Shown: positions 1-38,400 of the stretch, piece after piece
Numbering within the stretch: the first letter of the stretch is position 1
How the letters are laid out: each line of letters starts with the position of its first letter
Assembly: GCA_039621445.1 (NCBI GenBank)
Contig: CP154954.1
Location: 47,409,847-47,473,846, forward strand
Origin: Euglena gracilis
Lineage: Eukaryota
Reading direction: 5' to 3'
DNA length: 64,000 nt
Notes under the pieces: model-generated
Databases searched by the model: none
What the model was told of the DNA's origin: nothing
The model's input: the letters and a program-made list of their open reading frames with translations, nothing else
Position numbers and translations under genes: made by a program

Positions 1-79
1 CTCCATGGTAGTCGGGAAGAGTTCAGAGGGCTGGGGGATGCGGGCACGGGCCAGCGAGTGGTGGGGGGTGGGGGGTGCA

Positions 80-991
80 TCATGGGGTGTGATCGGGGTC
101 GGACCATGGTACGGCGGGGAAGGATCCAACACCGACGGTGCGCTGCCGTTGTTGCGGCGGATGAGTTGGGAGAGGAATCCCGGGGACGCAACGTGGGTCA
201 TCGGAAGGATCCAACAGCGGTGGCGGTGGTCGGAATACGTGTTCTTGGATCCATTCGACGATGCACTCCGCCACCACCCCCGCGGACGTGTCGGAGTTGG
301 TGTGGACCGCATTGGGTATGGGGTTCTGGACGGGCATGTGGGTGGGCGGGTGCTGCCGCGGCTGGCTGTGTCCCACGGCGGGGTGGGGGGTGTGGACGCT
401 GGTGTGTGCGCTGCTGTGGTGGCACGCGGGCAGCGCGCCCTCCAGGATGGGTCGGAGTGTGGGCCAACAGCCCTTGGCGAACGCGTGACTGCGGTGGGCC
501 AAACCGGCGAATACCACCCCGGATACGGAGCAGGTTTCCAAGGATTGGCCACCGGACCGACATTCCCGCATCCCCAGTTGCCGCAGGATCTTGGGAAAGG
601 CGGGGTCGTCCCAGGGGATGTGCCGCCAGAGGGCGTCGGCTGCGGGCCGGCTCCGTTCGATGGCCGCCTCCACCCGGTCGATCCACCCGCACCACCGCTC
701 GGCGGGGACGTCCGCGGGCCGGGCCGGGTAGCCCCGCCGGGCGCGGGCCAGTAGGCATTTCCAGTACCAAAATTCCGCGTCCGTCCACAGGCGCCCGCCC
801 GATGGCCGGGGATGCCGCTGCCGATGCTCCGCCTCGAGCCGCTGGCGGTGTTCGGCCTGTTCGACCAGCGCGGCGCGCTTGCGCTTGGCGTACCACCGGG
901 CGCTGGCGACCTTCTTGCGGAGTTTGCGGTGGCGGGTCCACTCCTCCGGGGTGACGGCGGCCCGGCGCACGCGCGGACATCGTTGGCGCAT
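80..991 (-). CDS. Hypothetical protein, 303 aa, with N-terminal basic region + helical segment (bZIP-like, possibly DNA-binding)
   Basis: ORF intact in both copies. RHRKLRKKVASARWYAKRKR is followed by a helical E/Q/R-rich segment. The C-terminal half looks less coding-like. Confidence 0.55.
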   Translation of the reverse strand: MRQRCPRVRRAAVTPEEWTRHRKLRKKVASARWYAKRKRAALVEQAEHRQRLEAEHRQRHPRPSGGRLWTDAEFWYWKCLLARARRGYPARPADVPAERWCGWIDRVEAAIERSRPAADALWRHIPWDDPAFPKILRQLGMRECRSGGQSLETCSVSGVVFAGLAHRSHAFAKGCWPTLRPILEGALPACHHSSAHTSVHTPHPAVGHSQPRQHPPTHMPVQNPIPNAVHTNSDTSAGVVAECIVEWIQEHVFRPPPPLLDPSDDPRCVPGIPLPTHPPQQRQRTVGVGSFPAVPWSDPDHTP

Positions 992-2006
992 CTACTGCCC
1001 GAACAGGTGCTGCAGGGAGCGGGAGAGGGTGGATTCGGCCAGGGGTACCCGGTGGTACTTCACCAGATTTTGGGGGTGGGTGAGGGAACTCAGGGGGTGG
1101 TGCGCCGCCCGGGTGAGCTGGGACCAGGACTCCGGGGTGAGTTCCGTGCGGGTGGGTGTCTTCGGGTGCGTGAGCCCCACGGACGGATCCGCCCCCCGGA
1201 TGTTGGCCACCCGCTCCGGCTCCACCGCCTTCAGGTGCTGGTGATCCGCGGGGGCGGGCAGACGGCGCCGCTCCATCTCGCGCTTCATGCGGTCGAGGAA
1301 GACGCAGAGGACCTCCGTCTCCTCGGGGAACCATTCGGCCACGTTCCAGTCGAGGCACCCCAGGGAGTTGTTGATGCAGATGCCGTTGAAGTTCTTGTCG
1401 ACCTCCCCGGTGCGGGGGTTGACGACGGAGCAGGTGTGCTGGTTGTAGATCCCCTTGAATTCCCGGAAGCGCTCGTAGTGTCCGGTCATGGAGATGAGCT
1501 CCCGGTAGATGCTTTCCAGGAGTTTTTCGTTGGTCGTTGGTCACGCGGGGTGTGGGTGACGTTCTGCCGGAGGAACGGGGACAGGGTGTGCCCCGAGGTC
1601 AGCGAGTGGTAGCACAGGCAGACGCTGAGCCGCTTGTGGCGGGCGACGGACAGCAGCCCCACGAAGTGGCGGTCGGTCCGGAAGGCCTCGTTCATCCCCA
1701 CGTCGTCCAGCCAGAGGAAGGTCCGGGGGATGGCGTGGGGGGCGACGGTGGCGTCCGTCCGCTGCAGGAACGCCGCGGAGAGGTCGGGGTGTACTCCGAG
1801 GTGATGAACACCTTGTCCCGGAACGGCTGGAGCCACGCGTACGAGTTCGCGGCCTCGAACAGGTACGTGGGCAGGACCAGGAAGTACTGGTCGAACACGT
1901 TGTTGCGGAGCAGCCACATGAGCAGCGTCATGACCCGGAAGGACTTGCCGCCACCCTTCTGTCCCAGGCACAACAGGATGGGCGCCTGGTACGGGTCGCG
2001 GAACAT
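992..2006 (-). CDS. A32/FtsK-HerA-like genome packaging ATPase (frameshifted in copy 1)
   Basis: Walker A LCLGQKGGGKS, Walker B FLWLDD, ARHKRLSVCLCYHS motif. Split by indels near 1790 and 1535 relative to the intact copy 2. Confidence 0.8.
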
Positions 2007-2062
2007 CTCCTGCAGCTGCGCCTGGAGGTCCACCTGGGGCGGCGACACCGCCGCGGTGTCGC

Positions 2063-2299
2063 CTAGCTGCGGGCGAAGTTGTACCGGGGCAGCCACGGCA
2101 GGCGCGCGGCGAGCGCCAGCGGGCGCTGCAGGACGTTGTTGTTGCGGGGCTCCTTGCCGCTGCGCCATCGGTTGGCGGGACGGAGCGTGCCGCCCCGGAT
2201 CAGAACGTCGCGGAGGGGGGTGAAGGCGCGGGACTGCTTGGACGCTCCGGGGGAGACGATGTGCCCGGCGACCGTGGACGCGGTGGAGCGGCGGGGCAT
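2063..2299 (-). CDS. Small basic (Arg-rich) protein, ~78 aa, possible core/DNA-condensing protein
   Basis: ATG lies 7 nt after GTTGGATCC. Strongly G/C-ending codons. Conserved in copy 2 with an in-frame indel. Confidence 0.55.
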   Translation of the reverse strand: MPRRSTASTVAGHIVSPGASKQSRAFTPLRDVLIRGGTLRPANRWRSGKEPRNNNVLQRPLALAARLPWLPRYNFARS

Positions 2300-2320
2300 G
2301 CGCGAAGGATCCAACGACAC

Positions 2321-5300
2321 CTATTGACCGCTGGAGGCGAAGCTTTCGAGTGAGTCCCGGAAGCGGTTGCACCGGCGCCAGGCGGGGACCATGGCCTCGC
2401 GCAGGGGGGCGAAGACCCGCTGCAGGCGGGCCTGGCCGGGATGGATGACGTGGCGGGCCACGACGTTGAACCGCCCCGGGGCGTACGCCTGCACGGGGCC
2501 CGGGCTGCTCCCCCCCGACGCGTACGCCTGCACGGGCCCCTGGCTCGGCAGCGGATCCAGTAGGGCCGAGGGTGGTCCCATCCAGGCGGGGGAGTCCACG
2601 AACTGGGTGGGTAGGGGGGTGTTGTCGAAGATGCGGGCTGGCGGGCTGCTGCCGGCAAGCGTTTGGGTGGACGGGCTGTCGCCGATGATCGTTTGGGTGG
2701 AGAGGGTGGCCTCCGACCCGGTGGGAGCCGTGGACCGTCCGCTCCCCCCGACCACCGCGGGGGGTCGTACCTCGTGGAAAAAATTCCAGTGGCGCTTGGC
2801 GTCGGCCACTTCGGGGGGGTCGAACAGGCGGTCGTCGTCGGGCAGTTGCACGTCCCGCGGGCCCTGCCATCCCGGTGGCAGTTTCCGCTGGCGAACGAGT
2901 TCGTCGAAGATGAACTTGCGCCGTGCGATGTGGTAGAACAGGTGCAGTTCCAGACGCACGTGTTTGTTGTCCCAGTGACTGGCCAGCCTCCGGGCCTCGA
3001 CGCGGTCGCCCCTCCGGATTGCGCCCGTGAAGGCCTCCACCCAGTCCTCCGCCTGGGTGCGGAGGGTGTCGATCCAGCGCTGCGCGCGCACCAGAACGTC
3101 GCGGTTGGTGGGAAATTCGACATCCATCATCACGGGCCCGTCGCCCCCCATCCCCCCCGGGAGTTCGGGCAGGTTGGTTTCGTTTGGGAGGTCGTCGACG
3201 ACCTCGTCGTACACCTGCCATTGGTAGATAACTTTGTCGTCGTCGTCCTCACTGCGGGCTGTGAGCTGTGTGGACTGGGTCGGTTGTGTGGACTGGTTCG
3301 GGATGGTGAACTGCGTCGACTGTGACTGTGGCTGTGTCGATTGCGGTGCGGTGGACTGGGTGTTGATGAGGTGCCACGAGGCCTGCGAATCGTCGGGGGG
3401 GTCCGGCAACGGGTGCCATTGCTCGTGAAACAGGCGGCGGATGTTCCCCGCGCTGTCCTGGGGTCGCCAGTCGTAGCGGAACCGCATCATCCGGGACCCG
3501 TAGTCCCACCATTGGTTGCGGAATTCGGGGCGCATCGGCAGTGTCGGGGCGGGGCGGACCGGGGGTACGGGCAGCCGCGCGAGGGTCTGCCAGACCCCGA
3601 GTTCCGAGCCGGAGTTGGGGAACTCCCGGGCCACGGACGCCAACCACTGGTTGCGGACCGCCGCGAGTTGGACCAGGACCTCGCGCTGCGTGGGGGTCCA
3701 GTAGGCCGTCCCCATCCGCTGGTCGTTTACGACACCCTCCCATCGGGGTCCGGGGTCCCACAGGCCGTTCGCGGCGGCGTAGAGGACGACGTCCAGGTCG
3801 GTCTGCACCTCCTGGACGCTCTGTGGCACCTCTCGGTCGTCGTACGGCGGAATCTCCCGCCGGGGCCAGGTCCCCTGGATGCCGCGGAACACGCCGTGTT
3901 GTACCAGGTACTGGTAGGGGTATACCCACAGGCTGTTGTCGTCCATCCGGTTCCGGAGACGGGCCTCCAGGTTCCGGATCATTTTTTTCACGTCCGCCTT
4001 CATCGATGCGTCCATTTTTCCGCCCAGGATGCGCTCCAGGGCCGCGTCGTCCCGTAGCAGGGACAACTGCGCGGCCACGATCGCCCAGTACCGGGCGAAG
4101 GTGTACGGGGTGCGGTTTCGCAGGGCATCCAGGTCGAGTTCGTCCGCGTGGTTGCCGAAGTCCCGCCGCAGCCTTCCGAGGATGCGCCGCTGCTGTTCCG
4201 CCGCGCTGCGCGATGCGGCCCGGGGGCTGGGTGTGTGATCGACGGGTGCGCCCGGCGGGGCCGGGAGTGCGATGACGGACGGGGTGGACGACGGGGTGAC
4301 GGACATATCCGCGTCCCCCCCCCTCCGGAGACCCGCCGGGGCTGCTGCGGATCAACGTGGCGGTGGAGGGGGTCGCGGTGGTCGGGGAGGCGGGGGGTGA
4401 GAGCCGGTCCACGTACGCCTGGGCCAGGGGGTGCAGTTCCATGCGCGGGGGCGGTTGTCCCGCACGCCCCACGACGGACAGGGCCTGGGAGGGTTTCGGT
4501 GAGGACGCGACGGGTATCGGGGAGTCCGCGACGACGGTCGCGTTGCGCTTCTTCTCCTTCCGGGCCTCGTCCCGCAGTTTCCGCTGCTCGCGCTCCCACT
4601 CGGCCCGCCGCGCGGGGTCCCGGGGCCGGCCCTTGGGCGGTCCCCGTTTGCGCCCCGCGGGGGGGACGACCACGACCTGCGACAGCCGGATCATGTCGTC
4701 CGGACCGCCGGGCGGTACGCGCCGCCGGCTGGGAGTCTGCCAGCCGGTGGTGGTGGACGAGGCGGCCGCGGGGTTCGCGGCCGCGGCCGCGGCCCGCTCC
4801 TCCTCCGCCTGCGCCTGGGACCGGGTGACCACCCGGCTCCGCCCGATGTTGGTGCGCGCGCGGTACAGGTTGGGGTACAACTGCGAACCCACCCGGGCGA
4901 GGCGCCGCTGCACGGCGGCCCGCGCCAGTTCCGACCGGGGGACCTGGCTCCCGATGACGCGTCGGGGGCGGACCCCGCCCAGTCGCACCCGCAGCGGTGC
5001 GCTGGTGGGTGCCGGGGCCGGTGGTGGGGCTACGGCTCCCGAACCCGCCCCGGCGGGGTCGTCTGCCATGGACAACTGGGTGGCGTCTTCGTCGTCGTCC
5101 GCGTCCAGAACGGTGGCCTGCGTGTCGTCGGGAACGGTCACCGCGGACGCCGCGGACGGCGGCGGCGGCGGTGCCGTGGAGGGGGTGAGGGTGGAGAGCG
5201 GGGTGCTCGCGTCCGGGGAGAACAACGGTGCGGACGCGTCGTCGTCCGCCGCCGCCGGCGGGGGTGAATCCGAGTCGGAGAACAGCGGCATAGACTCCGC

Positions 5301-6092
5301 CTCGATCTTCTCCTCCGCCGCGGCGGCGACCGCCCGTTGCCGGGCAGCCTCCACCGCTTCGTCGCGCTTTTGTGAGCGCTGGAATTCGGCCTGCCGTCGA
5401 TTCCGGGGCCGGGACGGCTCCGCCTCGTAGTCCGGTATCCAGGCGTCCTTGACGTTGTCCTGGGCGCCCACCGCGGCCACCTGGGTGGTGTCGTGCAGCG
5501 GGGGCTCGACGGCCGGCAGCCCCTTGTCGGTGTACTCCGCCAGCCGCTCCATCACCATGAGCGTCATGGTCGTCTTGTTGGCCTCGCTGATCACGTCGTG
5601 CTGCCAGTGCGCGTCGTTGATGTACGGGACGCCGTCCGTGGTGGATGACGTCGCGGCCCCCTCCCCCTCCGCCACCGGGTTGGTGCGGAAGTAGCCCCCC
5701 ATGTCGGGGATGACGGAGTGGTCGCTCTTCAGCATGAGGTACGCGAACTCGGTGCGGGTGACCTTCCCCGTCTTCACCAGCTCCTTCCAGTGGGCGGCGA
5801 GGTAGCCCTGGGCCCGCCGGGTCATTCCGGCGATGCTCTGCAGCACCTCCGCATCCAGTTGCCAGTCGGAACCGGGGTCGGGCGGTTTCGCCCGCAGCCG
5901 CCGGTACAGCTCGCGGGTCAGCAGGGATCGGGTGTAGTCCGTCCACAGCCGGTCCAGGCGCCGGCGCTCCGCGCTGGTCAGGCTCCGCCCCACTGCGGCC
6001 CGCAGGCGGTCGTTGGTGAACGCCGCGGTGGTGTGGGTGATCCGCACCTCGGTGTCGTCGTCGACGACGGGAACGGTGGGTGCCGAGGCCAT
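2321..6092 (-). CDS. Large low-complexity protein (~1,250 aa), unknown function
   Basis: The 947-aa and 661-aa ORFs join across a C-homopolymer at ~4315-4323, where copy 2 reads through (GGDADMSV). Start is preceded by GTTGGATCC. Confidence 0.65.
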
Positions 6093-6101
6093 GCGTCGCT
6101 G

Positions 6102-6177
6102 GGATCCAACAGCGGGGGTGGTGGTTGCGATTCAATCAGTACTGCCAACTCGGCGAACAACCCGGTTTGTTGGATCC
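6102..6177. promoter_or_regulatory. Divergent pair of GTTGGATCC motifs (putative bidirectional promoter)
   Basis: GGATCCAAC at 6102-6110 points to the minus-strand ATG at 6092. GTTGGATCC at 6169-6177 points to the MCP ATG at 6192. Same arrangement in copy 2. Confidence 0.65.
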
Positions 6178-6191
6178 TTTTTTTGCGCACC

Positions 6192-7805
6192 ATGTCGGAC
6201 CACTACGCCGTCGTGGGACAGAACAATCGGAACCTGCTGGTGCAGTCGCGGCGCCTGGCGCCCTTCCACGAGGACATCACGCGCCGGCAGCCCTTCGAGC
6301 CGGCCAGTGTGGCCCCGGGCCAGTACACCCGCATCAAGCTGGATTTCAAGCACGCCACGGACCGGGAGCTGGTGCTGAACGACATCCGGCTGCGCTTCGG
6401 CCTGGACTTCAGCGCCCGGCCCAACACGGGCAACGTCTTCGCCGTGCGGGCCCCGGACCTGAGCCGGGAGATGACCATCAAGATCAACGAGGACATCGTA
6501 TTCCGCGCCGACCGCATGCGCGAGCTCACCCACCTCTACGTGATGAACGCCGCCAAGCTGGCGGGCGAGCGCAACGAGGTCCGCGACGCCTTCCTGATGA
6601 ACGCCGGGGTGGTCCCGGCGGGCTACAGTCCGACCTTCAGCTACCGGACCGCGGACAAGGGCTGGTACGTCGACAGCGGCAGCCAGCTGTCCATCGACAA
6701 CGTCAACATCAAGGTGAGCGACGTGACCCGCGCGGGTCTGGAGCGGGACGACGGTCTGCCCCGGATGATCTGGAGTGACAAGGTCACCGGGACGCCGTAC
6801 AAGTTCGTCTTCGACATCAGCCTCAACCAGTTGTGCGGCCCCATCTTCCACCGCCTGCACCTGCGGCGCGTGGAGTTCGTGCAGATCGACCTCATGTTCG
6901 AGCCGTGGGTGTCCGCCCAGCAGACCCAAAAATTCCTGCTGTTCGCCACCGACCCGTCGTCCGGGGGCGCCCACCCCTACTCCGTGGCCCGCATCACCGA
7001 CCTGGAGGTCCGGCAGTACCGCACCACCCTCCTGGACGGCATCCACGGGTTCACGCTGCCCCCGGCGCGCATGCTGTCGTGGCTCATGCACCGCTACAGC
7101 ATGCGGGAGTACAACTTCGACTTCAGCAACCCGTCCAACTTCCTGGACATCCCCCTCAACGACTGGGAGATCCGGACGAACATCGTCCGCATCTGGTGGA
7201 TGCTGGCCCCGAAGAACCCCCAGCCGAACGGCAACGGCTTCGAGCCGCTGTTCGCGCCCTGCGAGCCCTACGAGCGCCTGATCGGCGTGGAGATCCGCTG
7301 GAAGAACGACAAGGTCCTGGACCTCGACACCCTGTTCCAGGTGTACCGCCACTACGTGCTGTCGGACAACAAGCGCTTCAGCCTGGCGGACCCCTACGTG
7401 CGCTTCCAGCGCCTGCTGGCCCCCGACCCCCCGGGGCGCCAGGTGGACACCGACCTCACCTACTACACGTGGAACGAGACGACGCGCGACCCCAACCTCA
7501 TCGGGCGCGAGCGCTACGAGATCCCCATGTACCACGTCGACCTCTCCATGAACATCCAGTCCGGGGTGCCGGGGGCGGAGATCGTGGGGGGCATCGTCAA
7601 CGACACCAGCGACTACGTCATCCGCCTCAAGAACGTCATCCGCGACGACAGCGCCCCCACCAGCGACCCGTTTGTGCACGCCGCCGACGGGGTGCGGAAG
7701 ATCTACGTGTGGATCGAGTACCAGACCCTCGTCAACCTCGCGGCCCACTCCAACCAGTTCTCGCGCTGCAGCCAGGTGGTCACCAAGCAGCTCAACGTAC
7801 AGTGA
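6192..7805 (+). CDS. Major capsid protein, double jelly-roll type (537 aa)
   Basis: Size and alternating-hydrophobic beta-strand pattern in two halves (RIKLDF, IRLRFGLDF, VQIDLMF, IVRIWWML, IYVWIEY). Very high GC3. Linked to a packaging ATPase. Confidence 0.75.
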   Translation: MSDHYAVVGQNNRNLLVQSRRLAPFHEDITRRQPFEPASVAPGQYTRIKLDFKHATDRELVLNDIRLRFGLDFSARPNTGNVFAVRAPDLSREMTIKINEDIVFRADRMRELTHLYVMNAAKLAGERNEVRDAFLMNAGVVPAGYSPTFSYRTADKGWYVDSGSQLSIDNVNIKVSDVTRAGLERDDGLPRMIWSDKVTGTPYKFVFDISLNQLCGPIFHRLHLRRVEFVQIDLMFEPWVSAQQTQKFLLFATDPSSGGAHPYSVARITDLEVRQYRTTLLDGIHGFTLPPARMLSWLMHRYSMREYNFDFSNPSNFLDIPLNDWEIRTNIVRIWWMLAPKNPQPNGNGFEPLFAPCEPYERLIGVEIRWKNDKVLDLDTLFQVYRHYVLSDNKRFSLADPYVRFQRLLAPDPPGRQVDTDLTYYTWNETTRDPNLIGRERYEIPMYHVDLSMNIQSGVPGAEIVGGIVNDTSDYVIRLKNVIRDDSAPTSDPFVHAADGVRKIYVWIEYQTLVNLAAHSNQFSRCSQVVTKQLNVQ

Positions 7806-7813
7806 CCGCGCGA

Positions 7814-8209
7814 ATGGCAACGTTGGATAATTTCGCGACCGTCTACGGTCCGGGCTCCCGCGCCCGGCAGACCAGCTACGCCGACCGCCTGCGCAACCTC
7901 CAGTACAACCTCCCCGACTCCGCGGCGCGGGGGTGGGACCTGCGGTCCGCGCTGCCGGTGGCCCCCGTCCAGCCGTACGACCCGGGGATGCACACCTCGG
8001 AGCGCCCCAGCCCCCTGATCGAGGAGCGGCGGACGCCGCGGGGGATGCAGGGCTATTTCGTGCCGCTGGTTCCCCGCCCCCAGCGCCGGGTGGGCGACAC
8101 GGCCGACGGGGTGCTGCTGTACGACGCCCGCGGGAACGTCGGCGCGCAGTGGCTCCGGCGGACCACGGCCCCGGTCCGCACCTACGGCCGCTTCCATCCC
8201 TACGTGTAA
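7814..8209 (+). CDS. Hypothetical protein, 131 aa
   Basis: Fills the gap after MCP, high GC3, conserved in copy 2. Confidence 0.6.
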   Translation: MATLDNFATVYGPGSRARQTSYADRLRNLQYNLPDSAARGWDLRSALPVAPVQPYDPGMHTSERPSPLIEERRTPRGMQGYFVPLVPRPQRRVGDTADGVLLYDARGNVGAQWLRRTTAPVRTYGRFHPYV

Positions 8210-8238
8210 CCACCACCGTCCTTGGATTCTTCGGGTCC

Positions 8239-8547
8239 ATGGCGCTGTTGCAGAACACCATGGTGCAGCCCCTGCATTTCGGGTCCCAGCTCATCCAGGA
8301 GCTGGGCCACGCGATCCACCCCCTGGTGCACGCCGTGGAGCAGCCCATCGACAACGTCGTGCGGAACACCACCAACGTGGTCTCGGGGGTCTTCCGTCTG
8401 AATCTGGCCCTGTTGGCCGCCCTTCCCTACGCCGCCGTGGCCTTCATGGGCTGGACCTTCGTCGGCAACTTCTTCCCCCGGGAGAAGCGCCGTCTGGAGG
8501 CGTCGGTGGGTTCGGCGGTGCGCCGGATCCGGCGCCGTCTCCTCTGA
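8239..8547 (+). CDS. Small putative membrane protein, 102 aa
   Basis: Hydrophobic LNLALLAALPYAAVAFMGWTFV followed by a basic tail. TTGGAT motif upstream. Confidence 0.65.
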   Translation: MALLQNTMVQPLHFGSQLIQELGHAIHPLVHAVEQPIDNVVRNTTNVVSGVFRLNLALLAALPYAAVAFMGWTFVGNFFPREKRRLEASVGSAVRRIRRRLL

Positions 8548-8578
8548 AACCACCCGCACCGTTGGATTGTACCGTGGC

Positions 8579-9268
8579 ATGGCGTGGTTGCTCGGCCCCC
8601 CGAACGATCCCCGGATGGTGGCCGGTGGCAAGCGGGGGCTCGACGAGCGCATCCGGCAGGATCCCGTGCTGAACATCCTGTGGCGACAGCGACCCCAGCG
8701 GCCGGTGATCCTCACCGGGAACCTCATCGTCGGCGGGGGGCAGAAGCCCCTGGACCCGGCGCTGCCGCTGCCGGACCACCCCGAACGCTACCCCCACGTG
8801 GCCCTGCTCCCCGCGGACTACGAGAACGTCGCCAACGGACGGCCCATCGAGCACACCGCGGACGGCGAGCCCATCGCCCGCAACGCGTGGGAGCACCTCC
8901 GGTGGCAGGCGACGTACCACCCGTGGACCCTGGTGCGCGCCGTCTTCGAGACCTTCGGCCGCGCGGCGGGCTGGGTGGTGTGGAACTACGCGGACTTCGC
9001 GGCGCAGTTCCGCGCCTGGGACGGGACCTGGACGGGTCTCGTGCACCACAGCGCGCTGATCTGGCGGGGGTTGGTGGTGGCGGCGCTGACGCTGGGCCTC
9101 GTGGAGGTGGGGCCCCTCCTGGGCGCCCTGGCCCAGTGGACGCGGCTCGTGTGGGAGCTCCTGCGTGCGGCGTTCGGGTTGGCCGCGGATGCGGCGCAGG
9201 TCCTGTGGTGGTCCCTCGGCCGCCTGTGGGACGACGTTGTAGGCATGGTTGGCATCGGACGATCCTAA
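8579..9268 (+). CDS. Trp-rich putative membrane protein, 229 aa
   Basis: Hydrophobic LIWRGLVVAALTLGLVEVGPLLGALA and amphipathic Trp-rich helices. GTTGGAT upstream. Confidence 0.65.
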   Translation: MAWLLGPPNDPRMVAGGKRGLDERIRQDPVLNILWRQRPQRPVILTGNLIVGGGQKPLDPALPLPDHPERYPHVALLPADYENVANGRPIEHTADGEPIARNAWEHLRWQATYHPWTLVRAVFETFGRAAGWVVWNYADFAAQFRAWDGTWTGLVHHSALIWRGLVVAALTLGLVEVGPLLGALAQWTRLVWELLRAAFGLAADAAQVLWWSLGRLWDDVVGMVGIGRS

Positions 9269-9300
9269 TCGCCACCGTTGGATCTTTTTGACAAAGCGGC

Positions 9301-10413
9301 ATGATTCACCGTCTGCGCATCAACAACTCCACCGAGTTCCTCCCCTCCCGGGGGGGCACGGTCCCCGACGACAAGGGAAAGGTGCAAATCGCCGGAAACT
9401 ATTTTTATCCGGTGGGTGACAGCATGGTCACCCCGCCCGAGCCCCAGGCCTACAAGGACGTGAGCTCGGACCGCCGGGAGGGGCTGTCCAGCTTCTTCGC
9501 GTTCGGGAAGCGCTCCGCGGAGCGCGGGGCCTTCCAGCAGGCCCACATGACCCCGAGCGGGGAGCCCGGGGTGCTGAACCTGGCGCTGATGAACAACCAG
9601 GGGGTCCCCATCGCCGGGGCCCCCTTCAAGTGGGGCAACCGGCGCATGCGCACCGATGCCAAGGGCATGTTCAAGTACGTGGACCGGGACTACTTCCAAA
9701 CGGCCATCTCCCTCGAAAACGAGCGCGTGTCCTACGTGACCCAGATGATTTCGCTGGTGATCGGCATGCCGGCCGAGAACGTGATCAACCTGTTCGGATG
9801 GGACTTCTACGAGGCGCTGGCCGGGGACGCGGACCCCTACCCCGTGGGGGAGAACGCCCGGAAGGCGGTGGACCTGTACGCGAGCTACCTCAGCACGGCC
9901 GGGATCACCGAGGACGTGGCCCGGCGCAAACTGCAACTCTTCAGCCGCTACGCGGACGCGGAGTGCTCCCCCGAGATCATCAGCAACTTCGGCGACAACG
10001 ACCCCGAGTGGAGCCGGTCCTTCAACAAGCTCGCCCTGCTCATCGAGTACCAGCCCACCGCCATCCTGTTTGACCACGGATCCCTGGATCCCCTCGACGC
10101 CGCGGGGGTGATCCACGGCGACAAGGGGGCCCACAACGTGGGCCCGTTGTCCGAGGACGCCCAAAACATACAGACCGCCGCCCGTGTAAAACCCATGTCC
10201 CAGAGCTTCGCGGACTCCAACCGACCGGGCACGAACATGCGGACCCGGAGCAAGGCGGCGGAGGCGGCAATGGCAGCAGAGGCCGCCATGGCGGCTCAAA
10301 AACAGGCCGAGATACAACAACAACAGGCCATAGCACAACAACAGGCAATGGCACAACAACAGGCACAGGTATACACCCAACAAAATGCCTTAGCCCTCAT
10401 GCCGAACGTGTAA
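9301..10413 (+). CDS. Hypothetical protein, 370 aa, Ala/Gln-rich C-terminal coiled coil
   Basis: Intact in both copies with mostly synonymous differences. GTTGGATC upstream. Confidence 0.75.
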   Translation: MIHRLRINNSTEFLPSRGGTVPDDKGKVQIAGNYFYPVGDSMVTPPEPQAYKDVSSDRREGLSSFFAFGKRSAERGAFQQAHMTPSGEPGVLNLALMNNQGVPIAGAPFKWGNRRMRTDAKGMFKYVDRDYFQTAISLENERVSYVTQMISLVIGMPAENVINLFGWDFYEALAGDADPYPVGENARKAVDLYASYLSTAGITEDVARRKLQLFSRYADAECSPEIISNFGDNDPEWSRSFNKLALLIEYQPTAILFDHGSLDPLDAAGVIHGDKGAHNVGPLSEDAQNIQTAARVKPMSQSFADSNRPGTNMRTRSKAAEAAMAAEAAMAAQKQAEIQQQQAIAQQQAMAQQQAQVYTQQNALALMPNV

Positions 10414-10437
10414 CAACACGACGTTGGATCCCTCGCC

Positions 10438-11019
10438 ATGAAGTTCTCCGCCATGTGGGTGAACGACCCTGCCACCAAGACGAAGCCCATGTCGTCCTTC
10501 CGGCTGAACCTCCGCGACTCCCTGCAGCCCGCGGGCGTCCTCGCGGACGGGGGGCTCGTGGGGCAGAGTCTTCACCTCGACCAGGTGCACGTCCAGTTCC
10601 GGCCCTCGGTCGACATCCAGCCCGCCGAGTTCGCCCCGGGGGACTCCGCGGACCGCAACTGGCGGGCGGAGACCTGCGCGCTGTACGTGCGCACGGATCC
10701 CGGGATGCGCTGCGTCCTCTACTCCAGCCCCGCGCTCGGCGACGGGGGGGTGCACCGCAGCCTCGTGTACAGCACCGCCCTGTTCTGCACGCCGGCCCTC
10801 AGCGGGAGCGAGGACTACTGGTGTCGCACCTACCGCCCCGACCTGCCCGTGGCCACGGACCTCCTGGCCGGGGGCGACCCCGAACTGGGCATCCACCTGT
10901 TCTGGCCGCTGCTGCAGGGGGGTTCCTCCGTCACCAACAGCCCCACCAACAATTGGTACGTCCCGGACTACCGCATCCTGCGGGTGCTCTGCGACTTCAG
11001 TCTGCGACCTCTCGCCTGA
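10438..11019 (+). CDS. Putative minor capsid (penton, single jelly-roll) protein, 193 aa
   Basis: Beta-rich pattern (FRLNL, LHLDQVHVQF, LYVRTD, LGIHLF, LRVLCDFSL). Sits in the structural cluster directly before the fibre-like genes. Confidence 0.5.
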   Translation: MKFSAMWVNDPATKTKPMSSFRLNLRDSLQPAGVLADGGLVGQSLHLDQVHVQFRPSVDIQPAEFAPGDSADRNWRAETCALYVRTDPGMRCVLYSSPALGDGGVHRSLVYSTALFCTPALSGSEDYWCRTYRPDLPVATDLLAGGDPELGIHLFWPLLQGGSSVTNSPTNNWYVPDYRILRVLCDFSLRPLA

Positions 11020-11054
11020 GTTGTTGGATCTTTTTTTTTGTTTTGTTTTGGCAT

Positions 11055-11771
11055 ATGGCGGACTACAACCGGGACCCATTGTCGGCGGTGTTCACCGCGG
11101 ATCTGCTGCAACGGCTGCGCGTCCTGGCGAGCGGCGGCACAACGGGGGGCGGTACCGTGGACCTGGGTCCGGTGAACGCGACCGTCGCGACCCTGCAAAC
11201 CCAGGTGAATCAGTTTGCCACCCAGCAGAGCCAACTCAGCACCCAACTCGGTCAGCTCAGCAGCCAGGTCAGCCAACTTTCCAGCCAGGTGGGTCAGCTC
11301 AGCAGCGGTAGCAGCAACCACCCGCCCGCCAACACCGTGAAGGGGTGGATCCTGGGGGCGGGCCTGACGCGGCCCGTGGCCGTGCTCAGCAGCTCGGCCA
11401 CCATGGACGCCACCGCGTGGCAGAGCTGGATCATGCTCAACGGGGACCGGGGCACCCTGACCCTCGGGGCGCCCACGTCGGGCGGGACCACCATGGCCCT
11501 CGCCAACTTCTGGACGGACCGCGTGCCGAACCAGTTCCCCTTCGCCCCCGCCAACTGGGGCAACGACGCCGCGCCCAGCGGGGCGTGGACGCTGATCTGC
11601 AACATCGGGGGCAGCGCCTGGAACATCGCCCTGCCGGCGGGGACCTCGGGCAAGAACTCCGCGGGGAGCTACATCGGCGGCGCGCAGACGGATTCCCTCG
11701 CCCCGGGGAAAATGGCCTTCGCCATGTGCTGGGCCAAGGACATGCCCGGTTTCTTCTACTGGGCGTTTTAA
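11055..11771 (+). CDS. Fibre/spike-like protein, 238 aa
   Basis: N-terminal heptad repeats (QLSSQVS), Gly/Ser linker, C-terminal Gly/Trp-rich beta domain. GTTGGATC upstream. Confidence 0.6.
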   Translation: MADYNRDPLSAVFTADLLQRLRVLASGGTTGGGTVDLGPVNATVATLQTQVNQFATQQSQLSTQLGQLSSQVSQLSSQVGQLSSGSSNHPPANTVKGWILGAGLTRPVAVLSSSATMDATAWQSWIMLNGDRGTLTLGAPTSGGTTMALANFWTDRVPNQFPFAPANWGNDAAPSGAWTLICNIGGSAWNIALPAGTSGKNSAGSYIGGAQTDSLAPGKMAFAMCWAKDMPGFFYWAF

Positions 11772-11775
11772 AAAA

Positions 11776-12714
11776 ATGTACGGCGTTGGATACTTCGTGG
11801 ACACGGCGGCCATGGACGAGGTGCGGCGGCAGATTGCGCAGTTGCAGACGTCGGTCACCAGCCTCAGCACGTCGGGGACGGCGCCCCTGGCGGTGGACCT
11901 CTCGGCCTACGCCACGACCGCGGCCGTCACCGCGCGGCTGGCGGACTACCTCACGGCGGCCGCCGCCGCGGCCACCTACGCCACCAAATCCGCCCTGGAG
12001 GCGCTGTCGGGCACCGTGACCACGGTGAGCAACAGTCTGGGCGGTTTTCTGACCAAAACGGAGGCGGCGGCCACCTACGCCACCAAGACCGCCCTGGAGG
12101 CATTGTCGGGAACGGTCAGCAATGCACTGGGAAATTTCCTGACCAAAGCGGATGCCACATCCACCTACGCCACGCAGACCGCCCTGAAGGCGCTCTCGGA
12201 CACCGTGGCGTCCCTGCCCGCCAACCAGGCGGGTGGGGGGCGCGAAATCCGCATGGCCTACGGCGTCAATTCCGGTCAGGGTGGATTCGGTGTGCACTGG
12301 CGGTTGTTGGAAAACGGCACGGGACTCGTCCACGACAACTCGGGGAGTCCAAATTTCTCCAACGGGACGAAATCGAGGCTGATCGTGAACGTCCAATGGA
12401 CGCTCTCGTTCCAACCAACAGGCGACGGATATCGCGCCGCGCTGTTGTACTTCTATCCACAAGACACGACCGCATTGCGGAAGGTGGTGGGCTACGCTTA
12501 CCACTATCATCAACACGACGACGGCAACGGGTCCAGTCTGTCGTCCAACGCTACGTTTCCGTTGGAACCCGGTGGCGGTTTCCACATCGAGTGCCGGGGC
12601 ACACTGATCACCAACGCGGATGCCGCCAACCCGTACGTACCGGAGCTTTCATTCTACGATCCGATGGCCCGGTACCCGGGAACAATCACCATACTGGCCA
12701 TGCCAGAGGTGTAA
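11776..12714 (+). CDS. Fibre-like protein with repeated shaft and C1q/TNF-like head (true start possibly 11812)
   Basis: Three YAT(K/Q)xALxALSxTV repeats and DLSAYAT. C-terminal SSLSSNATFPLEPGGGFHIEC resembles C1q-type strands. A GTTGGAT motif at 11785 precedes the ATG at 11812. Confidence 0.6.
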   Translation: MYGVGYFVDTAAMDEVRRQIAQLQTSVTSLSTSGTAPLAVDLSAYATTAAVTARLADYLTAAAAAATYATKSALEALSGTVTTVSNSLGGFLTKTEAAATYATKTALEALSGTVSNALGNFLTKADATSTYATQTALKALSDTVASLPANQAGGGREIRMAYGVNSGQGGFGVHWRLLENGTGLVHDNSGSPNFSNGTKSRLIVNVQWTLSFQPTGDGYRAALLYFYPQDTTALRKVVGYAYHYHQHDDGNGSSLSSNATFPLEPGGGFHIECRGTLITNADAANPYVPELSFYDPMARYPGTITILAMPEV

Positions 12715-12727
12715 CACAACCCGTTGG

Positions 12728-13003
12728 ATGCAACCCCCACCCAACCAACTGGAACACTGGCTGGACGACGCCGCCCAGATGGGCCTGATGCTCTACCGGA
12801 TGCGGATGGACTCCCGGTGGCAGCAGCGCGTGGTGCACGCCCCCCAGTTGCCCCCGTACCGACAAACCCCCCCACCCCCGCCACCACCGCCGCATCCCCC
12901 GCCGCACACCCCGGGTGTTGGATCCTTTTTGTACCGCCCCGCCAACCCACCGCCCTTGGAGCTCGCCACCGTCCGGTACACCCCCCAACCCGACCTCCGG
13001 TGA
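12728..13003 (+). CDS. Small Pro-rich hypothetical protein, ~91 aa
   Basis: ORF fills the gap between genes. ATG overlaps the GTTGGAT motif. Copy 2 is frameshifted in C-runs. Confidence 0.45.
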   Translation: MQPPPNQLEHWLDDAAQMGLMLYRMRMDSRWQQRVVHAPQLPPYRQTPPPPPPPPHPPPHTPGVGSFLYRPANPPPLELATVRYTPQPDLR

Positions 13004-13006
13004 ATC

Positions 13007-13339
13007 ATGTCGATGTCCGCCGCGTTCAACCCCGAAATGATCCCGCTCGGCGACCCCGCGGGCGCCGCGGCCACCCGGCCGGGCGGGTGGATCGTCCGCA
13101 TGGCCGACGAGGCGGCCTACCTGACCATCATGCTGTACATCTCGGACGCCACCAACTTCACCAGCTTCTTCTACCCCGTGCCGCTGATGATGGCCCGGGA
13201 CCCGGTGATCGTCCAGTGCCTGCGGTACGGGATGCAGTTCGCCACGCTGAAGGAGATCCAGCACTGGCTGGAGGCCGTGGGCATCCCCACCCGGCTGTTC
13301 GGTCACTACCTGGCCGGCATCACCGAGCGCGTCCTCTGA
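13007..13339 (+). CDS. Hypothetical protein, 110 aa
   Basis: High GC3, identical in copy 2. Confidence 0.7.
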   Translation: MSMSAAFNPEMIPLGDPAGAAATRPGGWIVRMADEAAYLTIMLYISDATNFTSFFYPVPLMMARDPVIVQCLRYGMQFATLKEIQHWLEAVGIPTRLFGHYLAGITERVL

Positions 13340-13363
13340 CCGCCACCGCCGTAGGATACTACG

Positions 13364-13720
13364 ATGGACGTCGACGGACCCGCGGTCCGCAGTGAGCGAT
13401 TCAAGCCCTACGACGCGACCACCATCCCGTGGAAGCGCCGGGCCAACATCGGCAACTGGACCGGCGCCCGCCGGCCCCGGTACCCCGTGGTGTGGCGGCC
13501 GTACACCAACAACCCGCACCGTCACATCATCGGGGACCGATCGGTCATCACCCGCATGCACCACACCGGCTATGCCAAGGATGTCATCGGGTCGTTCAAC
13601 CGGAGCGCGACGCCCCTTCTCCCGCTGTCCGCCCGCTCCGCGTTCGACGGTGCGCCCAACGTCCTTCGGAGCGTCCCCGCCCTCGGGGGACGACGCCATT
13701 GGTTCTTCGACGAGACCTGA
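13364..13720 (+). CDS. Basic hypothetical protein, 118 aa
   Basis: High GC3, variant motif GTAGGAT upstream, identical in copy 2. Confidence 0.65.
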   Translation: MDVDGPAVRSERFKPYDATTIPWKRRANIGNWTGARRPRYPVVWRPYTNNPHRHIIGDRSVITRMHHTGYAKDVIGSFNRSATPLLPLSARSAFDGAPNVLRSVPALGGRRHWFFDET

Positions 13721-22329: not shown

Positions 22330-23346
22330 CTACTGCCCGAACAGGTGCTGCAGGGAGCGGGAGAGGGTGGATTCGGCCAGGGGTACCCGGTGGTACTTCA
22401 CCAGATTTTGGGGGTGGGTGAGGAAACTCAGGGGGTGGTGCGCCGCCCGGGTGAGCTGGGGCCAGGACTCCGGGGTGAGTTCCGTGCGGGTGGGTGTCTT
22501 CGGGTGTGTGAGCCCCACGGACGGATCCGCCCCCCGGATGTTGGCCACCCGCTCCGGCTCCACCGCCTTCAGGTGCTGGTGATCCGCGGGGGCGGGCAGA
22601 CGGCGCCGTTCCATCTCGCGCTTCATGCGGTCGAGGAAGACGCAGAGGACCTCCGTCTCCTCGGGGAACCATTCGGCCACGTTCCAGTCGAGGCACCCCA
22701 GGGAGTTGTTGATGCAGATGCCGTTGAAGTTCTTGTCGACCTCCCCGGTGCGGGGGTTGACGACGGAGCAGGTGTGCTGGTTGTAGATCCCCTTGAATTC
22801 CCGGAAGCGCTCGTAGTGTCCGGTCATGGAGATGAGCTCCCGGTAGATGCTTTCCAGGAGTTTTTCGTTGGTCACGCGGAAGAGCAGGGTGTGGGTGACG
22901 TTCTGCCGGAGGAACGGGGACAGGGTGTGCCCCGAGGTCAGCGAGTGGTAGCACAGGCAGACGCTGAGCCGCTTGTGGCGGGCGACGGACAGCAGCCCCA
23001 CGAAGTGGCGGTCGGTCCGGAAGGCCTCGTTCATCCCCACGTCGTCCAGCCAGAGGAAGGTCCGGGGGATGGCGTGGGGGGCGACGGTGGCGTCCGGCCG
23101 CTGCAGGAACGCCGCGGAGAGGTCGGGGGTGTACTCCGAGGTGATGAACACCTTGTCCCGGAACGGCTGGAGCCACGCGTACGAGTTCGCGGCCTCGAAC
23201 AGGTACGTGGGCAGGACCAGGAAGTACTGGTCGAACACGTTGTTGCGGAGCAGCCACATGAGCAGCGTCATGACCCGGAAGGATTTGCCGCCCCCCTTCT
23301 GTCCCAGGCACAACAGGATGGGCGCCTGGTACGGGTCGCGGAACAT
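22330..23346 (-). CDS. A32/FtsK-HerA-like packaging ATPase, intact (~338 aa from the first nearby ATG)
   Basis: GQKGGGKS, FLWLDD, ARHKRLSVCLCYHS and LSPFLRQNVTHTLLF all in one frame. Confidence 0.88.
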   Translation of the reverse strand: MFRDPYQAPILLCLGQKGGGKSFRVMTLLMWLLRNNVFDQYFLVLPTYLFEAANSYAWLQPFRDKVFITSEYTPDLSAAFLQRPDATVAPHAIPRTFLWLDDVGMNEAFRTDRHFVGLLSVARHKRLSVCLCYHSLTSGHTLSPFLRQNVTHTLLFRVTNEKLLESIYRELISMTGHYERFREFKGIYNQHTCSVVNPRTGEVDKNFNGICINNSLGCLDWNVAEWFPEETEVLCVFLDRMKREMERRRLPAPADHQHLKAVEPERVANIRGADPSVGLTHPKTPTRTELTPESWPQLTRAAHHPLSFLTHPQNLVKYHRVPLAESTLSRSLQHLFGQ

Positions 23347-35471: not shown

Positions 35472-38400
35472 ATGCAACTCATCAAGCGGAACCGCGACAG
35501 CCAGCAGTACCGCGTGGGCGACCTGCGCCTCGGTGCGGGCTCCCAGCTGGTGCAGTTCAGCGTCATGGTCCGCAACGCGCCCTCCGACCCGGCGTCGACC
35601 ACCTCGTGGCGCACGTTCCGGGCCGTGGTGGACGTACCCCCGGGCAGCCCCAACGAGCAGGAGCGGGTGGAGGAGATCATCCGCACCGAGCTCAAAACCA
35701 ACTTCGCCGCCTTCGGGATGTACGCCCGCGACAACCTCCCCGACCTCTACTGCGACCCCGCCACCCAGGAGCCCGTGGCGGTGTGGAACGGCTCGCAGCA
35801 GGTGCTTACCAACGAGGACGTCTTCCGCATCCTCGCCCGCGGCTCCGACGCCGACCGGGACACCATCCTGCGGCGCCAGAAGGACTACTTCTCCCGGCGC
35901 AAGTGCTTCGGCTACCTCGACGACATCCGCCCCAAGCACCGCTCCTTCCGCTACCACATCCAGGGGGTGGACGTGCCGACGCTGATGCGCCTCATCCCCG
36001 ACGAGATCGCGGCCCACGAGTGCAACCGCATGTGCGCCTACGACATGCTGCGGGAGCGCAACCCCCCCTCGGAGCGCGGCCGTGCAATGCCCAATCGGAT
36101 GTTCGAGCCCGCCGTGGTCAACGAGTGGCTGAACGCCAACGGCCACGCCGTGGGGACACTCACCGACGGCCTCTGCCCGGCGGACATCCAGGCGCACGCC
36201 GAGGCCTTCCGCTACGGCCACGCCGCCCTCGACATCACGCGCGGCATCATCCTCCTGCACATCCCGGAGAAGCCCCGCAAGGACTTCCGCACCGTCGCCT
36301 ACACCGTCGTGGGCGATCACGTCATCCCCTTCACGGACAAGGATGTGATCAAAAGCATCATGCACTCGGCCGCCCACCGCCTCGGACGGCGTCGCTTCAC
36401 CGGCTACCACATGATGGATGGACCAGCGGGACTCCACAACGGACACGAGACGGAGACCACGCCCAACCGCCGCAAGCGCATGCGTTCCCTGGACCGCGTC
36501 CTGCACCCGGACACCACCCGGCCTCACAGCGGGACGCGGAGGCAGTCGCCGGACCCGACGCCCCCATCGACTGGGAGGTGGACGAGCGCGAGGACGACTT
36601 CGAGGACGTGCAGTCGGTCCGGTCGGGCGTCGACCGCGTGGGCAACGCCAACAAAAAGACGACGCCCCAGTACCCCCTCGTGACGGACACCGACCGCTTC
36701 CACTTCTTCACCAAGGCTGACGACCAAGCCCTCGTCCGCGCCAAGCTCCGCCCCGACTACCAGGAGGGCCCCCACGCCCACCTGGTCCATTTCTACATCT
36801 GCACCGATGAGCCCGACGTCGAGTTCCTCTACCACTACTGCACCCGCATCCTCGCTTGGGACCCCACCACCGCCGCGCGCAGCTTCAACGGCCAATGCAA
36901 ACAGCTCCGCATCAAGAACGTCATCTGGGTGGCCATCCCGGACATCCACCAACTCCTCAAGCTGCACACCCTCCTCTACCCCAAGGAGCCCTTCCGCCCC
37001 GTGGGCATCGCCTCTTACGCCTGGCGCATGTTGTACAAGGAGCTGTCGCGGATCGGCCGCTTCGGCACCGGTCTCTGGGACTGCCTGTCGCAGTACCCCC
37101 CCAACCTCCAACGCCTCCTCGACAACCACCACCCCTACCACCGCCCCAAGCTCCTCCAGAAGACCTTCCACCCCCCCTACGCCCTCCCCGAGCGGGACGA
37201 CACACCCCCCGCCGAGCTCATCCCCGAGAACCAGCGCCGGCGCGTGGACCTCATCCGCAGCTACACGGCCACCCTCCTCGCCATGCACGCGGACCGCGAC
37301 GAGTTCCCCATCCACGACCTCACCAACCGCGTGGTCCCCTTCGACCCCGTCGAACACGCCGCGATCCCCATCGGACACTACCTCGTCCGCATCCCCTCCG
37401 CCGCCGAGCGGCAAACCCGCGGAACCCACGCCGACTGAGAGCGCCTCCCCTGCTTCGCCCCCGACGCGGAGAAGCGCACCATGAGCCACCGCATGCTCCG
37501 TGCCCTCCTCCACCGCGGCCTCCTCACCCACGCCGACGTGGAGCTCGTGTGCACCACCCACGCCCGCCGTCAGTCCAACTTCGGCGCGGCCCTCGTCACC
37601 GCCTTCGTCAACCTCATCGACACCGTCTACAAACACCCGGGACTCCAGGACCCCGCAGACGCCGCCATCCCCAAGAAGCTCATCAACCAGCTCGTCGGCC
37701 TGTGCAACGGCACCACCGTCCCCTACTCCGGCAACCGCTACGTCTTCCGCAGCCTCGAGGAGATGTACCAGCTCATGCTCCGCGTCTACACCGAGGATCA
37801 GCTGGCCAAGGTCAAGCTGTCCCGCGTCTACGGCCGCGACCCCTACTGGGACCGCACGGAGTACTGCCACTACGAGATGACGACCAGCGGCTGGACCTAC
37901 CGCTCCTTCCACCTGCAGCCCGTCTACAACGTCGTCCTCGAGGACCAGGCCATCCGCATGTTCGACCTCTGTCGGCCCATCCCGCTCAACGCCCTCATCC
38001 AGCTCAACATCGACGCCGTGGAGTACCGCATTCGCCCCGAACACCGCCACGCGGAATGGGTGCGCACCCTGAAACACAATCGCCAGAACATGGACGGCGC
38101 CGACACCCTCACCACGCGGCACCTCCTGGAACAGGGCTTCATCGGCCGCTACAAGTCCGAGGCCATCAAGACCGTCGACAAATGGAAGACCTACTACTAC
38201 AACTACCAACAGGCCCGCACGGACGGACGGATCAAGAAATTCCTCCTCACCGCCCCGGACGCGGCCCCCGAACTCGAGGACCCGGAGTCCCGCGACTGGC
38301 TCGCCTCCTGGCGCTCCACCCTGCGCATCGTCCGTCCGGGGGACGGGGTGCGCGACGGCCGGTACCTGGACGACCTCTGCGGCGAGTGGTTCCGCGAGGC

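Follow-up and report, generated by a model that had tools for sequence, protein, structure and literature searches.

A short, strictly oriented DNA word, GTTGGAT, recurs just in front of genes in a GC-rich element of the Euglena gracilis genome. The stretch analyzed here, hereafter the window, comprises 64,000 nucleotides (nt) of contig CP154954.1 (assembly GCA_039621445.1, positions 47,409,847 to 47,473,846 of the forward strand) and holds two copies of the element. With a probability that we put at about 0.6, the word marks the starts of late genes, as a promoter or initiator, in an integrated virus of the polinton-like or virophage-like kind that has a double-jelly-roll capsid. Its enrichment, its strandedness, its coupling to start codons, the capsid gene behind it, its conservation within the family and its absence from the helicase gene are seen directly; it would act on transcription, and the genes that it marks would be the late ones.

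The word is far more frequent than base composition predicts. The 8-mer GTTGGATC occurs 19 times in the window, compared to 2.58 ± 1.63 in 100 dinucleotide shuffles, whose maximum was seven and none of which reached 19. The heptamer GTTGGAT is found 13 times within positions 1–15,740, nine times on the plus and four times on the minus strand, where 1000 first-order Markov simulations yield 1.26 ± 1.12 and at most seven. This corresponds to an enrichment of about 10-fold for the 7-mer and about 7-fold for the 8-mer, and the 24-kb low-GC flank holds only one exact GTTGGATC, at 47978. When two one-base variants are included (cTTGGAT at 8221 and GTAGGAT at 13351), copy 1 of the element contains 15 sites, every one of which is found again in copy 2, shifted by about 21,339–21,347 nt.

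An alignment of these 15 sites gives the extended consensus mACCnnCGnY-GTTGGAT-CCTTY. Upstream of the core, position -9 is A in 11/15 sites, positions -8 and -7 are C in 10/15 and position -1 is a pyrimidine throughout (15/15), while downstream C prevails at +8 (11/15) and T at +9 (12/15) and +10 (11/15). Four sites run on into 5–9 T and thereby account for four of the five sense-strand runs of at least five T in the plus-strand array. The sites share no common secondary structure (RNAalifold predicts 0 pairs), and the motif has no match in Rfam.

What sets the word apart is its relation to gene starts. At all 15 sites its orientation is the sense of the downstream open reading frame (ORF), and at 12 of them the distance from its first G to the ATG is 13–32 nt, that is, the start codon lies 5–24 nt past the 8-mer. 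At 13/15 sites the first ATG past the motif begins an ORF of 74 amino acids (aa) or more, and at 11/15 one of 100 aa or more. Since GC-rich DNA abounds in long open frames, we compared the sites with 20,000 random positions in 1–13,800, for which the first ATG opens at least 100 aa in 39% of cases. If the ATG is further required to lie within 35 nt, 10/15 motif sites comply, as against 11.6% of random positions.

The layout of the genes points the same way. Plus-strand genes follow each other head-to-tail with gaps of 3–64 nt and no AATAAA between them. In the array from 7822 to 13351 the gaps, counted from ORF coordinates, total about 290 nt of about 7.5 kb, and eight of the ten motif sites there are intergenic; gaps of 24–64 nt contain the motif, a C/A-rich spacer and little else. 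Two divergent arrays both open with the motif, at 6110 on the minus and 6169 on the plus strand, 58 nt apart, and no motif is found past the last plus-strand gene (13,720). Its presence before both divergent first genes together with its absence past the last one indicates that it goes with the starts of genes, not with their ends.

A sequence-only reading of this DNA had listed the sites, their recurrence in the second copy, a distance of 5–25 nt to the ATG and gaps made of a stop codon, a C/A-rich spacer and the motif, and had proposed a check for enrichment. The check confirms it in abundance (13 against 1.26 for the heptamer, 19 against 2.58 for the 8-mer), in strand and in start-codon coupling. 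The recurrence, the spacing and the composition of the gaps hold as described; the listed sites all exist, with the four minus-strand coordinates one base too low (corrected in Table 1).

Does the word survive in relatives? Relatives at the DNA level amount to two short metagenome contigs, L001 and L002, whose major capsid protein is 51–53% identical and whose GC content is 48–49% as against 68%. No further ones came from metagenome or genome contigs, and a scan of IMG/VR with the capsid protein, the capsid alignment and the proteins P0056 and P0091 returned no relative, so that IMG/VR is without this capsid clade. The intergenic DNA of the two contigs does not align with that of the window, and TT[G/A]GAT nevertheless stands, in sense orientation, no more than about 25 nt from the ATG at 5/5 of their gene starts (Table 1). 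Counting both strands, the hexamer occurs 12 times in L002 and four times in L001, from which a chance sense match per 40-nt window is about 5%.

Protein databases offer a second route to upstream DNA: where a gene has been called too early, its 5' leader is translated, and the protein reveals the DNA before the true start. Among 119 capsid homologues, 11 have at least seven extra residues before the methionine usual for the family, the boundary being picked by eye from the conserved block and the internal methionine. In 10 of the 11 extensions [G/A]TTGGAT[C/T/A] is found translated in one of the three frames, at most 16 residues before the true methionine, and in 7/11 this holds by strict patterns. 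The translations read VGSF in P0021, P0028 and P0049, CWI in P0005, P0011 and P0094, YWI in P0099, LDL in P0004 and P0063, and MD-H, from a TTG start, in P0072; only the extension of P0045 contains no translation of the motif. The background in the bodies of 239 proteins is 0.0049 per residue (0.0007 without the weaker LD pattern), which gives an expectation per extension of 6.6% for any pattern and 0.9% for the strict ones. Along the same lines, all three extensions among homologues of the 370-aa protein translate the motif, as IGSF in the near-identical P0207 and P0220 and as HWI in P0229. The core at the family level is TT[G/A]GAT[C/A/T]. Judged from these leaders and contigs, GTTGGAT(C)(Y)TT precedes the capsid gene across the clade, over 48–67% capsid identity.

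The capsid gene itself is identified by its fold. An AlphaFold2 model of the 537-aa protein (pLDDT 83.4, pTM 0.86) matches PBCV-1 Vp54 in Foldseek at 1.4e-13 with probability 1.00, and also Sputnik, mavirus and many giant-virus capsid proteins. These are matches of fold only: the protein has no Pfam match and no sequence match to solved virophage capsid proteins. Its 119 homologues come from metagenomes at 39–69% identity, on contigs of up to 28 kb, and are nearly all unnamed. The sequence-only reading had placed the motif before the genes of a structural module. For the capsid gene this stands, and for the remaining motif-led genes it is plausible; these belong to no recognized family, and two further genes, for an ATPase-like and a 303-aa protein, are without the motif. 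The 947-aa protein has no recognized family, two of the small proteins carry hydrophobic stretches, two others contain short serial repeats and look fibre-like (Pfam matches sub-threshold only), and the 193-aa protein looks beta-rich from its sequence. We considered the 370-aa protein as a penton and rejected it: the predicted fold is mostly helical (pLDDT 71.6) with no Foldseek match at E <= 0.001, and for these reasons the protein is not established as structural.

The replication gene is set apart from this module. Its frameshifted region shows an SF1 helicase domain in Pfam (AAA_19 at 1.2e-6, 29.2 bits with a cutoff of 25.1; AAA_30 and PIF1 also match), and no motif match is found between 34,698 and 40,000. 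An AT-rich patch at 35,400–35,430 lies upstream of it and an AATAAA at 40,332 downstream; the motif-bearing module contains no AATAAA.

Table 1. Motif sites, their counterparts and the genes discussed. Positions refer to the window; the bases that follow the core are given in parentheses.
Feature	Sequence	Position	Strand	Context
Motif	GTTGGAT(CCTTCC)	124..130	-	ATG 23 nt downstream; ORF of only 27 aa in copy 2
Motif	GTTGGAT(CCTTCC)	209..215	-	ATG 14 nt downstream; 170-aa Pro-rich ORF in copy 2
Motif	GTTGGAT(CCTTCG)	2309..2315	-	ATG 16 nt downstream; 78-aa ORF ahead of ATPase-like ORF
Motif	GTTGGAT(CCCAGC)	6104..6110	-	ATG 18 nt downstream; 947-aa ORF (3252-6092), first minus-array gene
Motif	GTTGGAT(CCTTTTTTT)	6169..6175	+	ATG 23 nt downstream; capsid gene, first plus-array gene
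Motif	GTTGGAT(AATTTC), GTTGGATA	7822..7828	+	within first codons (M-A-T-L-D-N-F) of 131-aa ORF 7814-8209
Motif variant	CTTGGAT(TCTTCG)	8221..8227	+	ATG 18 nt downstream; 102-aa ORF with hydrophobic stretch
Motif	GTTGGAT(TGTACC), GTTGGATT	8561..8567	+	ATG 18 nt downstream; 229-aa ORF
Motif	GTTGGAT(CTTTTT)	9277..9283	+	ATG 24 nt downstream; 370-aa ORF (9301-10413)
Motif	GTTGGAT(CCCTCG)	10423..10429	+	ATG 15 nt downstream; 193-aa ORF
Motif	GTTGGAT(CTTTTTTTTT)	11023..11029	+	ATG 32 nt downstream; 238-aa ORF with QLSSQV repeats
Motif	GTTGGAT(ACTTCG), GTTGGATA	11785..11791	+	ATG 27 nt downstream (300 aa); in-frame ATG 9 nt upstream too
Motif	GTTGGAT(GCAACC), GTTGGATG	12723..12729	+	ATG overlaps core (5 nt past first G), another 56 nt downstream; ORF short and Pro-rich, its frame differing between copies
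Motif	GTTGGAT(CCTTTTT)	12917..12923	+	inside an ORF; next ATG 90 nt downstream (110-aa ORF, 13007-13339)
Motif variant	GTAGGAT(ACTACG)	13351..13357	+	ATG 13 nt downstream; 118-aa ORF, last plus-array gene
Corrected 8-mers		123-130, 208-215, 2308-2315, 6103-6110	-	the four minus-strand sites of copy 1
Copy-2 cores		21462-21468, 21547-21553, 23646-23652, 27443-27449	-	counterparts of four copy-1 sites
Copy-2 core starts		27508, 29161, 29560, 29900, 30616, 31762, 32368, 33130, 34068, 34264, 34698	+	eleven counterparts
L002 motif	ATTGGATC			5 nt before capsid ATG
L002 motif	ATTAGATCTT			11 nt before ATG of divergent gene, orthologue of 947-aa gene
L002 motif	TTGGATAA			codons 3-5 of gene after capsid gene
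L001 motif	GTTAGATA			8 nt before ATG of gene that follows capsid gene
L001 motif	GTTGGATTCTT			22 nt before following gene's ATG
Major capsid protein gene		6192..7805	+	537 aa, double jelly roll (AlphaFold2 and Foldseek)
P-loop ATPase-like ORF		22333..23346	-	intact in copy 2, split in copy 1; no motif directly upstream
Replication gene region		35475..40227	+	frameshifted, SF1 helicase domain; no motif

How might such a word work? If it is a late gene-start signal, late mRNA would begin at the motif or a few bases upstream of it, and the first ATG past the motif would be the start codon taken by ribosomes. The spacing of only 1–5 nt between motif and ATG in relatives, together with the ATG upstream of the core at 7822, suggests that the motif is itself transcribed. 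Transcription would then start in or before the C/A-rich spacer, and the motif would act as an initiator or a downstream element instead of an upstream box; alternatively, the 7822 gene may be translated from the capsid mRNA. From same-strand genes packed this tightly and not separated by poly(A) hexamers, nested or read-through transcripts would result. Expression of the helicase gene would be driven otherwise, through its AT-rich upstream patch and downstream AATAAA, and the result would be an early/late split as in baculoviruses, poxviruses and giant viruses. The late promoter or initiator put forward in the sequence-only reading fits the strict orientation, the ATG coupling, the presence at both array starts with absence past the last plus-strand gene, and the conservation in relatives.

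Several observations weigh against a late gene-start signal. Four RNA runs that carry the same species label place few reads on 1–15,700 (X3 5, X5 3, X6 13 and X7 6 reads), with no starts and no joints; in X3, X5 and X7 most reads fit only partly, and no transcript 5' end is mapped. GTTGGAT also occurs five times inside the L002 capsid gene, which means that the heptamer cannot suffice by itself. At 7822 the motif lies 8 nt downstream of the sole in-frame ATG that can serve as a start, which requires either a transcription start upstream of the core or expression of this gene in another way; its homologues keep MATLDNF in all three found, and that of L002 starts MSLDNF. In L002 5 nt separate the end of the motif from the capsid ATG, and in P0229 about 1 nt separates it from the ATG, so that a start downstream of it would leave almost no leader. 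The ATPase-like and 303-aa genes are without the motif, even though genes for packaging ATPases are as a rule late ones. Homologues of the 193-aa protein (26 representatives) have no usable extended N-termini and are uninformative either way. Finally, frame-breaking indels in both copies make decay of the element possible.

Two sequence records touch on expression without being evidence of it, or of habitat. The leaf-litter metatranscriptome X1 holds 0.06 of the words sampled from 5,900–13,900, and a 998-nt public contig encodes a protein (P0240) 98% identical to the 131-aa protein.

Which factor would read the word is a question within the late-signal reading, and here a helper giant virus and a factor encoded by the element seem equally plausible, each a tentative choice, with a host factor alone distinctly less so. 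In its stronger form the first idea holds that the motif mimics the late promoter of a giant virus in the same host, and that the element stays silent until this helper supplies polymerase and late factors. We regard this as possible though rather unlikely. A single short motif, uniform before most genes of a compact double-jelly-roll virus of 20 kb, is, in the accessible parts of the literature, the virophage pattern, and this uniformity leans towards a helper. Along with this, no RNA polymerase is recognized among the element ORFs, though most of these match no family. The near-zero reads in the four RNA runs also agree with it, if weakly, as those strains may not carry the element; they fit a helper and a factor that travels with the virus alike. 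On the other hand, the helper-type motifs reported in the accessible sources are AT-rich (AAAATTGA, TCTA and WWWWWTGWWWWW). The element has 68% GC and a replication gene with nuclear-looking signals, its AT-rich patch and AATAAA. A motif kept over 46–69% capsid identity and 48–68% GC would moreover require an equally conserved helper lineage. We scanned IMG/VR for GTTGGATCCTT followed by ATG within 3–30 nt and obtained at least 114 scattered loci, essentially one per contig, with no giant-virus sequence bearing the motif among the matches listed. The contig matched twice among those listed, G001 (38 kb, 42% GC), belongs to an unrelated virus and was rejected: TTGGAT recurs throughout its coding sequence without any tie to gene starts. 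The scattered, chance-like matches neither support nor refute the giant-virus reader suggested in the sequence-only reading.

We lean slightly towards a factor that travels with the virus, given how constant the word stays over differing GC contents and diverged capsids, the high GC of the element, and the nuclear-looking signals of its replication gene. In the broadest form of this idea, to which we give the same tentative standing as to helper mimicry, GTTGGATCYTT would be the family-wide late gene-start signal of a large clade of polinton-like viruses, read not by a particular helper but by a late transcription factor encoded in the element, or by a polymerase concealed among its unannotated ORFs. 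Such a reader would explain why the word stays constant across 46–69% capsid identity and 48–68% GC.

The motif might also act on RNA and not on transcription, lying in a 5' leader or polycistronic precursor as a cistron processing site or as an enhancer of translation or re-initiation. The 1–5 nt spacing in relatives and the upstream ATG at 7822, which place it inside the transcript, speak for such a role, as do the head-to-tail plus-strand genes with gaps of 3–64 nt and no AATAAA between them, which fit long multi-gene transcripts. The 3' half of the motif, GAUCCUUC, is presumably complementary to a conserved 3'-terminal stretch of the small-subunit rRNA, yet the best-conserved half is GTTGGAT, not this one. 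The first gene of each array carries the motif though no cistron precedes it, the 15 sites lack a shared secondary structure or Rfam match, and the motif is unlike a splice acceptor. We therefore consider an RNA-level role improbable, more so than a helper's promoter. Far more improbable still is a DNA signal apart from expression, be it a GATC/GGATCC target of a methyltransferase or nuclease or a recombination or packaging site between genes. It is true that the core contains GATC, that the palindrome GGATCC is present at 8/15 sites and that GGATCC occurs 17 times in copy 1. The motif is asymmetric, however, and gene-oriented in 15/15 cases, as a palindromic enzyme site would not be; conservation reaches past the palindrome, 7/15 sites lack GGATCC, and Pfam detects no methyltransferase or nuclease family among the element ORFs.

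The element as a whole combines a double-jelly-roll capsid, a size of about 21.3 kb (range expected, about 15–40 kb), a GC content unlike that of the host and a replication module, which are among the features by which polinton-like and virophage-like elements of the Preplasmiviricota type are recognized. Its GC-rich DNA (0.65–0.73, overall about 68%) adjoins a flank of 0.40–0.53 GC that begins near 40.2 kb. Copy 1 (1–15,717) is 99.03% identical to its counterpart in copy 2 (21,340–37,065), with 116 mismatches and 22 gap openings, and the repeat period is about 21.3 kb. Copy 1 ends at about 15,741, followed by 22-nt tandem repeats and a low-GC kilobase; copy 2 extends to 40,227. At the terminus of copy 1, 15,727–15,888 holds about seven tandem 22-nt units (GCTCAGCATTACGGGGTGTAAT), and the low-GC kilobase (15,900–16,900) contains three repeats of a unit rich in T-, C- and A-runs at about 16,470–16,800. 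At the right border an AT-rich minisatellite with units like AATTAAAAACAATTAAA follows directly on the AATAAA (40,330–40,560). No inverted repeat of at least 40 nt was found at the element ends. Gap openings between the copies break reading frames differently in each: the ATPase-like ORF is whole only in copy 2, and the 947-aa ORF, complete in copy 1, is shortened to 38 aa in copy 2. These differences may reflect decay or homopolymer errors of the assembly.

We ran Pfam on sets of 17, 6, 31 and 1 ORFs, along with sequence searches of the PDB, Rfam and ARAGORN, and these searches yielded nothing except the SF1 helicase and a weak F-box-like match. The latter (17,878–18,360, plus strand; E 0.0031, below the cutoff) lies in a GC-rich left arm without motif sites. 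Among the element ORFs no Pfam match was obtained for a single-jelly-roll penton, a maturation protease or an integrase; divergence or decay could hide these, as well as terminal inverted repeats. The flank contains only short stop-to-stop frames, no tRNA according to ARAGORN and no Rfam match; by these traits, and given what kind of element it adjoins, it looks eukaryote-like. At 17,440–17,560 lies a GGTTCGAACCCCGG stretch similar to a tRNA T-arm, with an AATAAA behind it at 17,556; ARAGORN calls no tRNA there, and the stretch may be what is left of a tRNA at the left end of copy 2 or close to it.

Some details of the minus-strand array can be added. The ATPase-like ORF, the candidate for an FtsK/A32-type packaging ATPase, shows a Walker A (GQKGGGKS) and a Walker B-like element (LWLDD) by eye; in Pfam it reaches only AAA_22 at E 0.034, below the cutoff, and a sequence search of the PDB gave no match. 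It comes after the 78-aa ORF and a perfect 11-bp inverted repeat (GGCGACACCGC / GCGGTGTCGCC, 1-nt spacer) at 2041–2063, near 23,380 in copy 2. This repeat separates the 78-aa ORF's stop codon from the first ATG of the ATPase-like ORF and could be a hairpin or a protein-binding site. At 991–994 the stop codon TAG of the ATPase-like ORF directly adjoins the ATG of the 303-aa ORF with no motif between them, which suggests that the two are expressed in a coupled manner; an Atlas look-up of the 303-aa ORF gave scores of at most 0.82, which are uninformative. On the plus strand, a CTTGGATCC word at 244–252 (matrix score 16.1) points in the opposite direction to the 209–215 site, 29 nt from it, and 17 nt further on an ATG opens a 75-aa frame antisense to the 303-aa ORF. 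This word may be a divergent partner or a product of chance.

The general idea of one short promoter word before the genes of a small double-jelly-roll virus is already known. Virophages driven by a helper include mavirus with Cafeteria roenbergensis virus (CroV) and Sputnik with mimivirus. As far as the accessible text describes it, mavirus and the type-4 endogenous mavirus-like elements (EMALEs) use TCTA in AT-rich DNA, which is the late promoter of CroV (PMC8547959). They resemble the element described here in that a short sense motif stands within about 100 nt upstream of most ORFs of an integrated, host-silent double-jelly-roll virus of about 20 kb (same source). Here, in contrast, the motif is unrelated in sequence and is not AT-rich, no helper is known to bear it, the replication gene is without it, and the capsid is alike in fold only. 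The polinton-like virophage PgVV-14T (Gezel-14T) carries the Mimiviridae early promoter AAAATTGA before start codons, and in the sections available this AT-rich word precedes only five genes, including those for the polymerase (TVpol) and the recombinase (Yrec) (10.1101/2022.07.28.501842). In our element, the word stands before capsid-side genes and avoids the helicase gene.

Likenesses in form are also found outside the virophages. The late initiator of baculoviruses, (A/G/T)TAAG, and the late TAAAT(G) of poxviruses coincide with or adjoin the mRNA start and precede late ATGs by a few to tens of bases. These viruses have their own RNA polymerase, their early and replication genes use host-like promoters, and initiation inside the motif is proven. 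Their words share with GTTGGAT that they are very short, strictly oriented and placed just before the ATG; they differ in sequence, no RNA polymerase is recognized in our element, and initiation inside the motif is a proposal here. Yeast cytoplasmic linear plasmids carry the upstream conserved sequence ATNTGA before every ORF, read by element-encoded machinery. They, too, have one short motif before the ORFs of a small linear dsDNA element, but they are AT-rich and cytoplasmic, with their own polymerase and capping enzyme and without a capsid module.

The word GTTGGAT is not reported in the accessible parts of the promoter literature on virophages and polinton-like viruses, whose supplementary motif tables and figures could hold similar ones, and TTGGAT appears together with polinton or virophage only in primers or otherwise unrelated contexts. 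The novelty lies in the sequence, which contains GC and is semi-palindromic, in its confinement to genes other than those of replication, and in the way it is conserved throughout a large clade.

According to the accessible literature, promoter motifs currently serve as the chief means of matching virophages and polinton-like viruses to their giant-virus partners and of predicting which of the integrated copies can be reactivated. The motif provides a search key for members of the clade and for possible helpers, and it shows that surveys restricted to AT-rich motifs miss some families. The approach through N-terminal extensions recovers upstream DNA motifs from protein databases where no DNA is at hand, and can be reused for other families. 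The motif is also a bait for the protein that switches on the late genes. If that protein indeed travels with the virus, the family would possess something that we did not find described in the accessible parts of the polinton-like-virus literature: a baculovirus-like switch between early and late genes.

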